NCBI GenBank assembly: GCA_951406725.2
Contig: OX597816.1
Span: 108,438,001-108,502,000 of the forward strand
Direction: 5' to 3'
DNA: 64,000 nucleotides
Origin: Octopus vulgaris
Taxonomy: Eukaryota
Shown piece by piece: positions 28,638 through 39,418 of this stretch. The notes under the pieces were generated by a model. It did no database searches and had not been told where the DNA came from. It was given only the letters and a program-made list of their open reading frames with translations. The position numbers and the translations under genes are program-made. Position 1 is the stretch's first letter; every line of letters begins with the position of its first letter.

Positions 28638-31600
28638 TGTTTCTTTATTAGCCACACAGGGCTGCACACAGACGGGACAAATTACAAGGTAGATCTTTTC
28701 TTTTGTGGGTAAAAAAGGGGGTTTGGTTTTCGATCAAAAGGGATCGTAAAAGGAAAGAAAGAGGACAAAAGAGGGGGGATAACATTTTAAAAAAAAAAGG
28801 AAAATTAAAAAATTGATCAATAGGGATCGTTATCACAGAAATGTCAATATAAAGTGTAAAGGGGAGGACAGGTGAGGTTTACCCGTGGAAAGAAAAGCCT
28901 ACGGAAAAGACCACGGTAACCTCAGTCAATTAAGTCACATGTTATATATATTTTTTTTTTACAAATAAGCAATATTCTGTATTAATTTTTACGGTTCATA
29001 GGATCATAGTCAAGGTGGCTTCGTCATTCATACGTGCCATCCTTGCTACATTCACCCATCTTTTTTTAAAACATTCACTAGACAAAACTTGCCTCTCTAC
29101 TCTCACTTTCCTCTTCAAGTGATACTTGAAGAAGTTGATGAGAGATTGACTAAAGAGGAAAGTGTCTGTCTCTAATCCTTTCAGGCGCGTCCACCAGATA
29201 CATTCTTTCGCCATAGCCACAAGTATGATAAAAATAGCTCTTCCTTCCCGTTTGAAGGAAGGAGGCGTGACGATATTAACGATAGACTCGGCTGATAAAC
29301 CGACACGTCCCACACGTGACAGCAGTCGTTCGACATAAGCCCCCAGGTCGGAGATTGTTGGACACTGCACGATTGCGTGCAGAACGGTTTCGTCGCTCTG
29401 CCCGCATCTCGGGCAGGTCGGCCCCGTGTTTCTCGAGCCATGCCTATAGAGCTTATCCCGAACGGGTAGCGCTTCTCGGTAGCACCGCCAGGCCAGGGAT
29501 CTCTGGAAGTTGTCCATGGGTCCCGGCTCGAAAGTCGTTTCAAACAGGCGGGTCAGGTATTCCTCGTCGACGCCCAGGTTTGCCCCAAGATCGTCGTCGT
29601 ACCTCCCCTCCACTAATCTCCTATAGAATGCTTTGGTTGTGTTGAAGTCACTCAAGGTCGACCCGGGACGGCAGAGTTGCTTGAGAGCAACGCGACACTC
29701 GCGGTGCCATTCGCCCTTCCTCGGCAGTTCGGTCATGGAGACGAGCTGCGGGAATGCGTGCCTCACAAACGGCGACCACACCTGTTCACCGTCGTCTACA
29801 TAGAGCCGGAGATGTCGCAGTCTCAGCGCGTGTCTGCGCATCATCAACCACGGCATGCCCAGCCCTCCTTTTAACGGGTGTTGACAGCAAATGGATCGCC
29901 TGACCATCGGGACGCATCCTTTCCACAAGAAGCGGAAGAGAATGCGTTCTAGTTTGGTGATAGTAGGGTCGGAACAAGGTACGACGGTCAGGCGGTTGTA
30001 GATGATGGACGCGATGTACGTGTTCGCCACCTTCTCCCGACCGTTTAGGGACAGTTTCTTCTCGACCCATTGCCGGGCGAGAGTGACCACCCTACTCGTT
30101 ATCTCGTTCCAGTTCTTCTCCATTTGGAGGTTCGGACCGAACTAGACCCCGAGCAATTCAACCGGGCCGTCCGTCCAGCGTCCCACGATGGCGGTACTGG
30201 TGGACGGCATGGGCTTGCTTCTCCAGGTGCCGAGCCGCAAGCCCACTGACTTTTCCCGGTTGATTTTTGCTCCTGTCACCGCTTCGTAGTCTTTCAGTGT
30301 CTCGCCGACCAGCTCGATATGCTCGTGGCTTGACACTATGACGGTGACGTCGTCCGCGTATGCAGACACGCTTGTCCCGCATCCCAATTCTCCCGGGATG
30401 CCCCTCAGAGTCGCCAGCTTCCGCAGTAGTGGCTCGAGAGTCAATACGTATAGAAGCGACGAGAGGGGGCATCCCTGACGGACCGAACGTGCAATGTCGA
30501 AAGGTCTCGATAGATGTCCATTTACGCGAACTACCGAACGGATGCCTCTGTACAACGCAGCTATCCAGCCGCGGAAGACAGGACCGAAACCAGCCGCTCT
30601 CAGGACTGCCTCCAAGTATCGATGGTCTACCCTATCGAAGGCTTTCGATTGATCCAAATTGATCAGGGTCCCACCCATGCCAGTTTCCTTAACTACTCTG
30701 TCTATGATGTAGCGCATCAGATGGAGGTTGTCATGGATGCTCCGGCCCGGCACGGCGCACGTTTGTGCCTTGTCGACCAGTTTCTCGATGACAAGCGCCA
30801 ACCTCTTGGCTAACACCTTGGTCAAAATTTTCAGGTCTGCATTGAGCAGGGTGATTGGTCTAAAGTTATCTATAATGTTCCCCCTTGTTTGGATCTTTCT
30901 TCAGCAGCGTTACGGCTCCTCGGCTCACAAAACTGGGTATGCTCCCGTTTTGCTGCCAGTTGCAGTATACCGCTGCCAAGACGTCTCCAAACAAGTCTGG
31001 CATACAATTGTAAAACTCGTAGGGCCGACCATCCAAACCCGGCGATTTGTCTCTCGAGCATTCTGCCATTGCGTCCCGCACATCCGCCGCCGTGATGACA
31101 CCTTCGCAGCACTCTGCTTCTCTTGCCGAGAGTCGTGGTAGGCTGTGCAGGTAGGCACTGAAGTCCACCCTGCGTTCACGCTCGCCACTCGTCCCGTACA
31201 GTCGGGCAAAGTGCCGCTGAAATGCCTCGCACATCTTGCTGGCCTCGAGCAATTCGCGCCCTTGTTCATCTACCAGAGACCGAATGGTGGCTTTGTTGCC
31301 CTGCTGCGCCTCCGCCACCCGGGCCTCTCTCGCGGCTCCAATACCTTCCATCCTTAAAGCACGCATCCTAGCCCTGACAGCACACCCTTCGTGTTTGGCG
31401 TTGAAGTGTTGGTCAAGGGCCAACCTCGCCGCTAAAACGTCGGATGTGATTCCGCTTCTTATTGCCTCTTCTAACTTCTATTTCTATCTACGGCTAGTGC
31501 CTTGCTATATCTAATTGCTTTCGCTTTTACTGCTCTCTTGAGGGCGAACCACCATTTGTTGTTGACAATGGCTCCCGTAATGGCTCCCTTTTTACTAACG

Positions 31601-32207
31601 TGTTGATTCTGTCTCTGAAAACATGTCTGGACGGGAAAGATGCGTTCAGTTTCCAGTAACCGGGACCCTGTCTATGTGCCTTATCTAAGTCTAGCGTACA
31701 CGTCACGAATTTGTGATCCGTGTAGCTGACTGTGTGGAATTGTGGACATCCTAAGTTATCCCTCTCTACTGTCCTACACAGTATCCTATCTAGATACGAT
31801 CTCAACGACCCACTGCAGTTGCTCCATGTCCACGTTGGTGCATTTGGGTGGTCGAGTCGGTACCTGTCAGACAGTTGGAATCGTCTGAGCAGGTCTCTGA
31901 GGCATTTGCATCCCCTTCTGTTTTTGTCTCTCCCCACATAGTCTAGATGCGTGTCCAAGGTAGCATTCCAATCCCCCACTAAAAGTAAAGGACGAGACGT
32001 TCCTAGGAAAACTTCTAGACGTCGAAAGAAATCCGTCCGACCTGTTAAAGGCGGTGCGTAGACTGATACGAGTCGAAAAGCGCACCCATTGCTGCCGTCG
32101 ACATCCAGAACGACCAGTCTACCCTCCGGGTCTACGAATATCATCTTGACTTCGAGATCCAGGCTCTTGTGAAAAGTACCGCGGTGCCACTACCGCCCAT
32201 CCTCGGC
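28638..32207 (-). mobile_element. L1/Tx1-clade LINE (APE + RT + zf-RVT), 5'-truncated, disrupted, inside (GATA)n
   Basis: APE: GRLVVLD..VYAP..GDWN..SYLDRI..TDHK..GYWKLN. RT: KSPGLDG..DQSKAFDRVDH..VRQGCPLS..AYADDV..GAKINREKS. C-terminus: CPRCGQSDETVLHAIVQC. Frameshifts near 31527, 31480 and 30866, and a stop at 30142. The 3' end is AATAAAGAAAC followed by (ATCT)n. Confidence 0.95.
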
Positions 32208-32293
<86 letters not shown>

Positions 32294-32907: not shown

Positions 32908-33317
32908 AAGTTCATGTAAAATTGCATTCAGATACATGAATACGTAAGTATATATGTGTATGTGTGTACATGTGCAAGTGTCTATTTGTGGGTTTATATA
33001 CACAAGCAAGATATTGCATACATGCATTCATACACACATACACATTCATTCATATATATATATATATTTGTATATGTATATATATATATTATATGTATAT
33101 ATATATATATATATATGTACGTGTGTGTGTGTGTATGTCTATATACATACTCATTTACACACATGAACTATATAGTTACCTATATCTATATATTACAATT
33201 TAGGTTAGTTGAAATATGTTTGTCACATATTTCAACTGCTAAAGGCAAATACGGGCGATCTACAAGCACAAATCAGTCACTGTGTTGATTGAATTATATA
33301 TAAATCTATAAGCTTTA

Positions 33318-33429
33318 TTCAATTCGTTCAGAGTTGCCTCTCTTATGTACGTCTCATCGACAAGAGTCATTAAACTCGAAACATCGATGTCTGAGATTTT
33401 CGAGAGAGGGCGACACTGAATGAATTGGG
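33318..33429 (+). ncRNA. Type I hammerhead with variant core UCGACAA on an extended hairpin
   Basis: TCTCA-TCGACAA-GAGT-CATTAA-ACTC-GAAAC-ATCGAT-GTC-TGAGA (33352-33396). Outer helices CCTCTCTT/GAGAGAGG, GTTG/CGAC and CAATTCGTTCAG/CTGAATGAATTG. Confidence 0.8.
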
Positions 33430-33771
33430 TGTCTTCACACCTTTTTAACATAAGAGAGATTTGTTCTCCTCGGTAACTGCAGTGTGTTTGCCTTTATTAG
33501 GTGAAATATGAAAAATTTATCAGCCTCTTATTTTCTATTCCTTAACATTTTGTTATCATTGTCAAAGACAATGACTGTATTTTAATACAACTATTTTAAC
33601 TAATTTTTAACATCACAAAGGCTACACAAGACCTTGCACTTTACTTTTGAAAATCTCTTTTTAAAAAAAGTGAAACCGGTTAGGTCAATAAACATCTTTA
33701 AAAGACCTCTGCATTTTCAAATCCTCTTCCCTATTTATTTTCACTCGTGCGGTACCTGCCATTTTTGCTTT

Positions 33772-37455: not shown

Positions 37456-38166
37456 TCAATTGTATGCAAGAAATGTATGCCGCTTCCAGTGGGGACATCT
37501 AAAAGAGTTTTGCAAAATCGCGTTAACTAGCTGCCCCCGGGCGAACAAAATGTGAAAAAGTTCATAGTTGCAGAGATTACAGATTCTTTTGCCTCTATCA
37601 AACGGTACAGACACCGATAAAATCGACCATTCCAGTCTAAATGCTGAATTCGCGTTCTTCAAACGCCAGATTAATTTACTTAGTCCGGTCGCGTGTTGTT
37701 TTCTAAAATTGCGAAATGTTGTGAAGTGGTTCGATATTCTCACGGCCAATTTTGATGAAGACGCTCCGATATACAAGTAGACATCTGATTCAGTATAAAC
37801 TCTGCATTGGTAAATGGCATTTCTAATCTTGGAATTACTAGATAAGAACCTTATTCTATTGGGATTGGCTTCCGATATTAATACGGCGTTCTTATTACTA
37901 TGATGATTGTGAGAACTGCGGCTGTCTTCGACCTTATACACCCCATTATCAATACTATTTAATGGAATATCACCTGTATATTCCCTGGCACTGAGATCGC
38001 TGTGATTGCTAATGTCCGTGATGCTACTGTTGTCAAAACCGTTGCTAAAAGTGTTATTGGGACTCTCTACATTAATGACTCGTAACCTCAACCGTGTTTT
38101 TTCTGTTGTGATTTTTGCTACCCAGGTATCGGTTAAATTTTGAATATTTTGAATAATCCGTAACAA
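37456..38166 (-). pseudogene. Penelope-type GIY-YIG endonuclease, uninterrupted C-terminal frame
   Basis: AIYQCRV..LYIGAS..RISNHFTTFR..TGLSKLIWRLK..WSIL..ICNLCNYELFHIL..N..RCPH. No RT or convincing start codon in the window. Confidence 0.85.
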
Positions 38167-38647
38167 GATAATTCATTTATCCATTTCAATAAGCCATAGT
38201 GTCACAGTAAATGAAATTTGTATAATTAGAATACTATAAATTGATTCCTTTTTGTTACGCATCTTTATCATGAAAGCTGAGAAAAAAACAATTAAGAAAC
38301 AAATACGGCTTCTAAAATCAAGTGACGTTCGCACAAAACATTATATAACACAAACTCATTTCTGGAATGAAATATTTGAACTGGCCTAACAAAAACAGAT
38401 CAGTTTCTTCTACAATTAGTTGATTTATGTCTGATACGTGATGTCCCCTAGCGGACAGTTAATACAAGGGAGATAATCATTTCTTGATAATATTTGGCGT
38501 GACCAGAAGTTTGAATCTGAAATTAAGGATTTACAAGGGGGAAATGCATAAAATACGTATATTCAATCGCTTCAGGTGTTCCTTACACAATGTATGTGCG
38601 ATCGATAAAGTTTAGATAACTAGAGCTGCTTTTGATTTATAATTTAA

Positions 38648-39014
38648 CTAGCAGTATCGCCCGGCGTTGCTCGGGTTCGTTTCGACCCTTTAGAATTGGA
38701 ATTTTTGAAAAGTAAAAATTTTGCATTATGTAGCTTAAGTGAACATTTTTCTGGTTGAAATACACCGAAAAATGGCGACACAGCAGTCAAAAAATCGCAA
38801 GAAATAGGGATTTTCACAGAAAAACCCCATTTTTTTATGTAAATAATTTTTGGCGTTAACATGGTCCGATTTGAATTTTTTCTTCTACGGAAGGAAGAGC
38901 AAGCCTTCTTCTATCACACACTCAACTTGCGCCGCAGGGTCTCGGAGGAGATATTGTTAGTTGAAGGCTACCAAACCTGCCATACACAGACAACTTCAGC
39001 TTTATATATAAAGA
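38648..39014 (-). mobile_element. Non-autonomous Helitron
   Basis: Minus strand: A|TC-TTTATATATAAAG ... hairpin CCCGAGCAACGCCGGG ... CTAG|T (5' TC, 3' CTAG, AT target). Confidence 0.8.
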
Positions 39015-39418
39015 TTTACTTTCACATGCGCTACGCTGCATCACATCAGCATGTAGATTTCATTCTATTTGCATTTAAGTCACAAACCAGCGATTCACTT
39101 CGTTTCGAGATAATCCGAATATATGGTATTGATAAGCCACATTAATGGCGAAATATTGATATCTACCATTCTCGGTGATTCCGAATCGAGTTGTCTCACC
39201 TGGTCTGTGAATACGAGGAATTCTTTAACACTTAGCATTGTGTAGGGAGCTTTTTCCAGGACGCTTTCCTGCAGTAAATTTGGTGTATAAACAAAACACA
39301 CTATGTATGCGTGATCGATAATGTTCGTGTGTGTGTTTGTGTGCGCGCGTGCGTATGTGCATGTGTGTGCGTGCAGTGTATGTGTGTACATGCATGTATA
39401 TATATGTGTGTATGTGTC

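Follow-up and report, generated by a model that had tools for sequence, protein, structure and literature searches.

A decayed copy of a likely non-LTR retrozyme with a U3-A8 hammerhead core and a probably tolerated C at position 4

The hammerhead motif and its hairpin

The window, a stretch of 64,000 nucleotides, possesses a type I hammerhead motif at 33351-33397 of the + strand, which is recognised from sequence, fold and cross-family alignment as three helices round a core, open at helix I. Stem I pairs TCTCA (33352-33356) with TGAGA (33392-33396) and reaches 6 bp with G33351-U33397; the core TCGACAA (33357-33363) supplies positions 3-9 as U3 C4 G5 A6 C7 A8 A9; stem II, GAGT/ACTC, is 4 bp long and carries the loop CAUUAA (33364-33377; the loop is CAAUAA in the parent family described below). 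It is followed by GAA at 33378-33380 (G12 A13 A14), by stem III, the palindrome ACATCGATGT (33381-33390), and by C17 at 33391, with the predicted cut between 33391 and 33392. The helices, the core UCGACAA and the GUC site that the original prediction named were all found at their places. Upstream, a GUAC bulge strand together with the 5′ strand of stem I occupies 33347-33356 (+), where the family has A at 33351 and the window copy G. Downstream, 33392-33428 (+) holds the 3′ strand of stem I, the 3′ side of the bulge (UUUUCG in the window copy versus UUCCCG in the family) and the 3′ arm of a long stem I extension, the 5′ arm of which lies at 33319-33345 (+). The outer helices of 8, 4 and 12 bp are readable from the sequence, and the fold program gives the same hairpin with its register shifted by one base.

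Folding of the + strand gives -45.8 kcal/mol (z -6.2), a value equalled in none of 200 shuffles. G5 A6, A9, G12 A13 A14, A15.1-U16.1 and H17 are all present in the motif, each also in 25-30 of 30 aligned relatives. The Watson-Crick 3-8 pair expected of a type I hammerhead is there as U3-A8; the U expected at position 4 is C in the window copy. Self-cleavage after C17 is predicted to be likely, although the secondary-structure model places the active fold 5.3 kcal/mol above the ensemble, which counts against it. By folding energies the palindromic stem III forms a self-duplex of -12.9 kcal/mol and no stable hairpin alone; cleavage as a dimer is therefore likely, and a U4 partner could rescue a C4 unit. 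A relaxed hammerhead scan of both strands returned two matches in the window, this motif and one at 39129. The expectation that strict searches would miss the motif proved correct: no Rfam hammerhead model matched the locus or the better-kept copy L051, either at the gathering score or at E values up to 10.

The parent repeat and its neighbours

No parent element had been recognised around the motif in the original prediction, which was mistaken on this point. The motif belongs to a dispersed repeat, family 1, the main copy of which spans 33252-33510 (+) and covers 259 of the 340 bp of the unit, with 139 bases on the 5′ side of the predicted cut and 119 on the 3′ side. An inverted piece of the unit's tail adjoins it at 33187-33252 (-) and ends in TA at a microsatellite on the left, a Penelope-type inversion. 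A first look at the 2.8-Gb genome gave 748 candidates, 40 of them scored; 60 loci were fetched and three overlapping ones dropped, leaving 57 distinct loci, of which 55 were mapped. The unit has a GC content of 0.39 and a longest ATG frame of 62 aa, and the majority model folds as a circle with 68% of its bases paired (z -8.8 against 40 shuffles). Since unit size, GC and self-pairing fit the elements described in PMC7229834, family 1 is likely a non-LTR retrozyme.

The mapped copies were chosen by cut site and hence all span it. Twenty-one of the 55 are longer than one unit, and in these longer copies the unit's own tail, not an ORF, precedes the ribozyme; the unit is therefore circularly permuted. 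An inverted 5′ piece occurs in 21/55 and an end at an AT run in 29/55, while the 3′ ends fall mostly 120-200 bases past the predicted cut. The partial tandems, the inversions at the 5′ end and the choice of microsatellites as targets match features reported in PMC8557442 and are thus read as Penelope-type insertion marks. Two cut sites are clearly spanned by L007 alone among the mapped copies, no long tandem array was seen among them, and the window copy is without head-to-tail repetition. Two consecutive units with complete ribozymes, the active-copy test of Li, Clavereau and Pollet (10.64898/2026.07.22.740005), were found in direct order at none of the 57 family 1 loci and are present in family 3 (see below). 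Uncleaved tandem transcripts would give the same copy shapes.

The window copy is 90.7% identical to the family 1 majority, that is, about 9% decayed. Its private changes affect the bulge region (33346, 33351, 33399-33400) and loop II (33370). Since it has a single ribozyme and its contact loops are damaged, it would be unable to set a unit free on its own. The argument that its G-U pairs favour an RNA structure of the + strand over a DNA palindrome held for U33335-G33412, which is inherited (41/46 copies), as is U33319-G33428 (35/46), but failed for G33326-U33421 and G33351-U33397, which are private mutations of G-C and A-U pairs in the family.

Family 1 could be the pseudo-LTR of an autonomous Penelope-like element, its copies being truncated ends of that element. 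In favour of this, Penelope elements are characterised by inversions, tails and TA targets (PMC8557442), and it was in Penelope pLTRs that U3-A8 was first described (PMC4209133). A 238-codon frame also lies 4 kb away at 37456-38172 (-), which by tblastn matches Penelope-like frames in L020 and L095 and has no Pfam match. By its motifs this frame resembles the GIY-YIG end of Penelope. It is unlinked to family 1, having matched only two other loci of 85 (L020 and L045), and in L020 a different repeat follows it. The unit's own tail upstream of the ribozyme in longer copies also speaks against a pseudo-LTR, and a 6-bp helix I with a 4-bp helix II is the canonical, not the minimal form of PMC4209133; we consider this origin quite improbable. 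In L020, at 960-1045, there is a further GIY-YIG-like fragment, after which comes a CUGAUGA stretch that resembles a hammerhead and has a long stem II; this is probably a separate Penelope end.

An ORF with RT and GIY-YIG joined to family 1 was found at none of the 57 loci with 1.5 kb flanks. A young Penelope-like family (L107-L130), reached by a search with the Penelope-like ORF of L098, is abundant, with RT, Cys linker and GIY-YIG and with many copies 97-98% alike; none of 25 loci contained family 1 sequence, with one family 3 piece nearby, and the relaxed scan detected no standard hammerhead in it. A hairpin that includes GAUGA lies in its 3′ region. At L098 (2112-4729) a unit of family 3 and a fragment of Penelope-like RT sequence are joined directly and in one orientation, and an inverted RT-GIY-YIG frame adjoins; the arrangement suggests, from its sequence, what a template switch would leave.

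A LINE also uses family 1 as its target. Its 3′ end is joined at the 5′ arm of stem I at 6/57 family 1 loci, and when the LINE end was used as query, 20 of the best 30 matches (these six included) continued into family 1, with one and the same base as the junction in almost every case. The corresponding 17-bp insertion site is empty in the window copy (33339-33355, +). Two loci show the 5′ half of family 1 and the 17-bp duplication round the LINE, and an origin of the ribozyme in the LINE 3′ UTR was rejected on this ground. Two further LINE-end matches lead into another hammerhead repeat (L164, L166), and one U2 gene (L175) has such a LINE end just upstream. Loci of this LINE are L140-L169, L090 (6137-9324) and L163. 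A relative of it lies in the window at 28996-32208 (-). It has an endonuclease, an RT and a zf-RVT domain, but a stop and changes of frame interrupt it; it sits in (GATA)n 1 kb away and was rejected as part of the family 1 insertion. Literature searches found no report of a LINE targeting a ribozyme repeat.

Positions 3, 4 and 8 of the core

Hammerhead positions 3 and 8 form a tertiary Watson-Crick pair in the active fold. A pattern that also allows C3-G8 gave 86 exact family 1 core matches, counted by eye, of which 80 are U3-A8, three C3-A8, three U3-G8 and none C3-G8. The U3-A8 pair is thus fixed in family 1, in keeping with the proposal that it is compensatory, and homologues that mostly carry CUGANGA, an outcome that would have told against a variant core, were not what was found. 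The genome search proposed for the fixation of U3, C4 and A8 bore out the pair but not position 4, where C is polymorphic (33/86).

A wider pattern (core, loop CAAUAA, GAAA) gave 340 matches versus four for its reversed control, and the further families come from the 100 of these that were listed. U3-A8 is present in four families (1-4) and C3-G8 in family 5. Family 2, with 262 first-look candidates, has a copy in the window at 39014-39325 (+), built to the same hammerhead design with the U3-A8 core UUGAUAA at 39129-39135; a U15.2-A16.2 pair gives it an AUC cut triplet, and its loop II and bulge are as in family 1. In the family 2 core U3 occurs in 21/24, U4 in 24/24 and A8 in 22/24. Family 3 (L092-L099) is young, has U3-A8 and forms 358-bp tandems that are 94-100% identical and end in (AT)n. 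In family 3 relatives among the contigs of sequencing run X1 (L092, positions 4877 and 4882), C3 has a read count of 318 and G8 of 271 at a depth of about 950, similar and unphased values, which may reflect reversion to C3-G8. Family 5 (L100-L103, L132, L136-L139) carries C3-G8, with a 359-bp tandem at L103 and C4 in some copies.

The sequences of stems I, II and III differ between the five families and yet pair, loop II being common to all; such covarying stems are good evidence, at the level of sequence, of selection on an RNA fold. They also bear on whether the locus could be a DNA palindrome, a MITE or a miRNA-like hairpin with a chance hammerhead look. Such a hairpin might be suspected from the - strand, which also folds well (-36.5 kcal/mol, z -4.2), and from Rfam, which on the locus and on L051 gave weak miRNA matches only. 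A core, loop II and three paired stems kept in five families with different sequences, and the excess of pattern matches over the reversed control, make this explanation scarcely credible.

The U3-A8 pair itself is not new, being in print in PMC4209133 and PMC3088659: the former gives about 1,300 U3-A8 descriptor matches in S. mansoni besides its first report in Penelope pLTRs, and according to the latter there are several natural U3-A8 variants and the pair has already been shown to be active in vitro. Descriptor and Rfam searches undercount animal retrozymes, as the core of entire families in this genome escaped every Rfam model.

Among the 86 exact matches, position 4 reads U 50 times, C 33 times (38%) and A three times. 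T-to-C change at nine other TG sites amounts to 6/493 cells, compared with C4 in 20/57 copies. None of the 22 copies that have A at 33371 carries C4, and 20 of the 35 others do (p 2.8e-6, uncorrected). On a tree of 52 family 1 copies built without positions 4-5 (five of the 57 were left out as short or gapped), the C4 label needs 10 changes against 15.6 in shuffles (0/500); this tree has no well-supported branch, so that C4 may have arisen once or more than once. C4 being far above background mutation and following subfamily markers, the sequences indicate that at least one family 1 source copy carried it and that it did not arise by scattered decay. L051, which at 96.4% is nearest of all copies to the family 1 majority, carries C4, and the other core positions have no inherited changes comparable to it. 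CpG decay of C4 may account for some of the U4 copies, as other CpGs lose their C in about 0-25% of copies. Two of nine exact family 5 matches are C4, and four family 5 C4 copies align as full hammerheads, three of the four having been picked for C4.

These data do not support the original prediction in so far as it took the whole variant core, C4 included, to be selected: the position is polymorphic and shows no sign of selection for C, which is probably tolerated rather than favoured. A tentative reading, which we rate at somewhat under an even chance, is that U3-C4-A8 is a working natural core, spread by source copies that cut and circularised, and that C4 arose more than once in the clade. 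If it works, position 4 is not invariant in full-length type I ribozymes. An unlikely alternative keeps the same element and supposes that C4 nearly kills cleavage, having spread from uncleaved tandems or through cutting by a U4 partner paired at stem III. In vitro U4C lowers activity considerably, according to PMC3088659; U4 is the majority state in family 1 (50/86) and is fixed in family 2 (24/24) and in the young family 3 rows; and uncut RNA could be the source of LINE-repeat composites in which the repeat's upstream half is missing. It fits less well with C4 in 38% of exact matches, L051 among them, and with its recurrence in a second family, when other core positions are without such inherited changes.

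We judge it very doubtful that U3 and C4 were selected together as an off-switch, in which the core UCGA would pair with the UCGA loop of stem III and block cleavage of the circle. The predicted best fold of the window copy does pair 33357-33360 with 33384-33387, and family 2 can form a like pairing. In the same frame, however, the gap to the active fold is 5.4 kcal/mol with C4 versus 5.8 with U4 and 4.3-5.5 with a C3-G8 core, and families 3 and 4 have U3-A8 but stem III sequences unable to pair in this way.

Should the working U3-C4-A8 core be confirmed, the five families would supply a natural series, combining C3-G8 or U3-A8 with U4 or C4, for examining how loop contacts and dimerisation buffer changes in the core; cleavage of the C4 form would relax an "invariant" hammerhead position in a genomic setting and offers a direct test of core tolerance. 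Literature searches, which covered main texts in part, found no report of the U3-C4-A8 combination, and supplements may hold mollusc motifs with U3-A8 or C4.

Proposed transcription and mobilisation, and comparison with known systems

A putative promoter lies inside the unit. ATCAGT at 33272-33277 (+), 85 bases before position 3, is likely an snRNA-type promoter element: 11 of 12 U2 genes have the same motif 57-61 bases upstream, and in each of the five families one representative has it, or a one- or two-base variant, 83-86 bases ahead of position 3, a placement expected by chance at about 0.6% per slot. It was found in 19/51 family 1 rows, many copies ending before it, and in 4/10 family 2 cores. 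From ATCAGT spacing as at the U2 genes we surmise that transcription would start near 33329-33332, about 25-28 bases before position 3. A TATA-like run at 33295-33304 (+), seen in the sequence, is a further candidate feature.

Three runs of raw cDNA, with 11.5-12.9 million reads each, yielded 144, 114 and 83 family 1 reads; the runs are from a species carrying the repeat, perhaps not that of the window, and such libraries can lose small circles. The reads fall on both strands, are mostly less than 90% alike and give low coverage, at which no piled read ends were seen in the three runs. They fit read-through of old copies, with no sign of abundant RNA. Almost no raw reads covered the family 3 unit in two runs.

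On balance, we hold with reasonable confidence that the locus is one decayed copy of a non-coding family with a 340-bp unit, which is likely to be a non-LTR retrozyme and has a fixed U3-A8 pair and a sub-lineage in which C4 is probably tolerated. In the mobilisation that we propose, a source copy of more than one unit would be transcribed from the internal snRNA-type promoter, and two successive hammerheads would cut after C17, helped by stem III pairing between the two units and by contact of the stem I bulge with loop II. The unit-length RNA would be ligated to a circle, which the reverse transcriptase and GIY-YIG endonuclease of a Penelope-like element could copy into DNA rich in TA. Copying would begin in the tail, 120-200 bases beyond the cut, could go on for more than one turn and would often leave an inverted 5′ piece. 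U3-A8 would keep the 3-8 pair; with C4, cleavage would probably be slower but not abolished. Since U3-A8, U4C and the class of element are all known already and the window copy is a fossil, the gain is modest.

Metazoan non-LTR retrozymes are described as non-coding units of 170-400 nt with a type I hammerhead (Cervera and de la Pena 2020, PMC7229834; Li, Clavereau and Pollet 2026, 10.64898/2026.07.22.740005); Penelope-like elements are given as their likely motor, and the mussel provides a molluscan example of 350-390 bp. Literature searches that took in these sources in part found no report of cephalopod retrozymes. Family 1 shares with the metazoan elements, as these accounts present them, a GC content under 45-50%, a strongly self-paired circle, partial tandems and solo copies. 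It differs in its U3-A8 core, in part with C4, where theirs is CUGANGA, and in its copies, which are mostly of 0.6-1.5 units with inversions, with no long array seen. Abundant linear and circular RNA of unit length is expected of non-LTR retrozymes; abundant RNA was not seen in the cDNA reads of family 1.

The hammerheads of the Schistosoma Penelope-like element Cercyon (PMC4209133) have the same compensatory U3-A8 pair as family 1, but they are described as minimal motifs with a long helix II, situated in pLTRs, whereas in family 1 the helices are of canonical size, stem III is a palindrome of 10 nt and the unit is non-coding. The sections of PMC4209133 and PMC3088659 considered here carry no mention of C4 alongside U3-A8. 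C at position 4, as in the window copy, is found in the U4C variant of a natural viroid hammerhead (Ambros and Flores 1998, via PMC3088659), of which the discussion in PMC3088659 states that the change "considerably decreases activity in vitro" and that the viroid stays infectious. As far as it is cited there, this variant has no 3-8 change, whereas in family 1 C4 joins U3-A8 and does so in many copies. The family-1-targeting LINE, the putative Tx1 membership of which is drawn from domain order, resembles Tx1-clade LINEs (Tx1 in Tx1D and Tx1-Mar in Mariner-N4; PMC4494074) in inserting at one site of a mobile repeat, and is set apart from them by its target, the 5′ arm of a hammerhead repeat.
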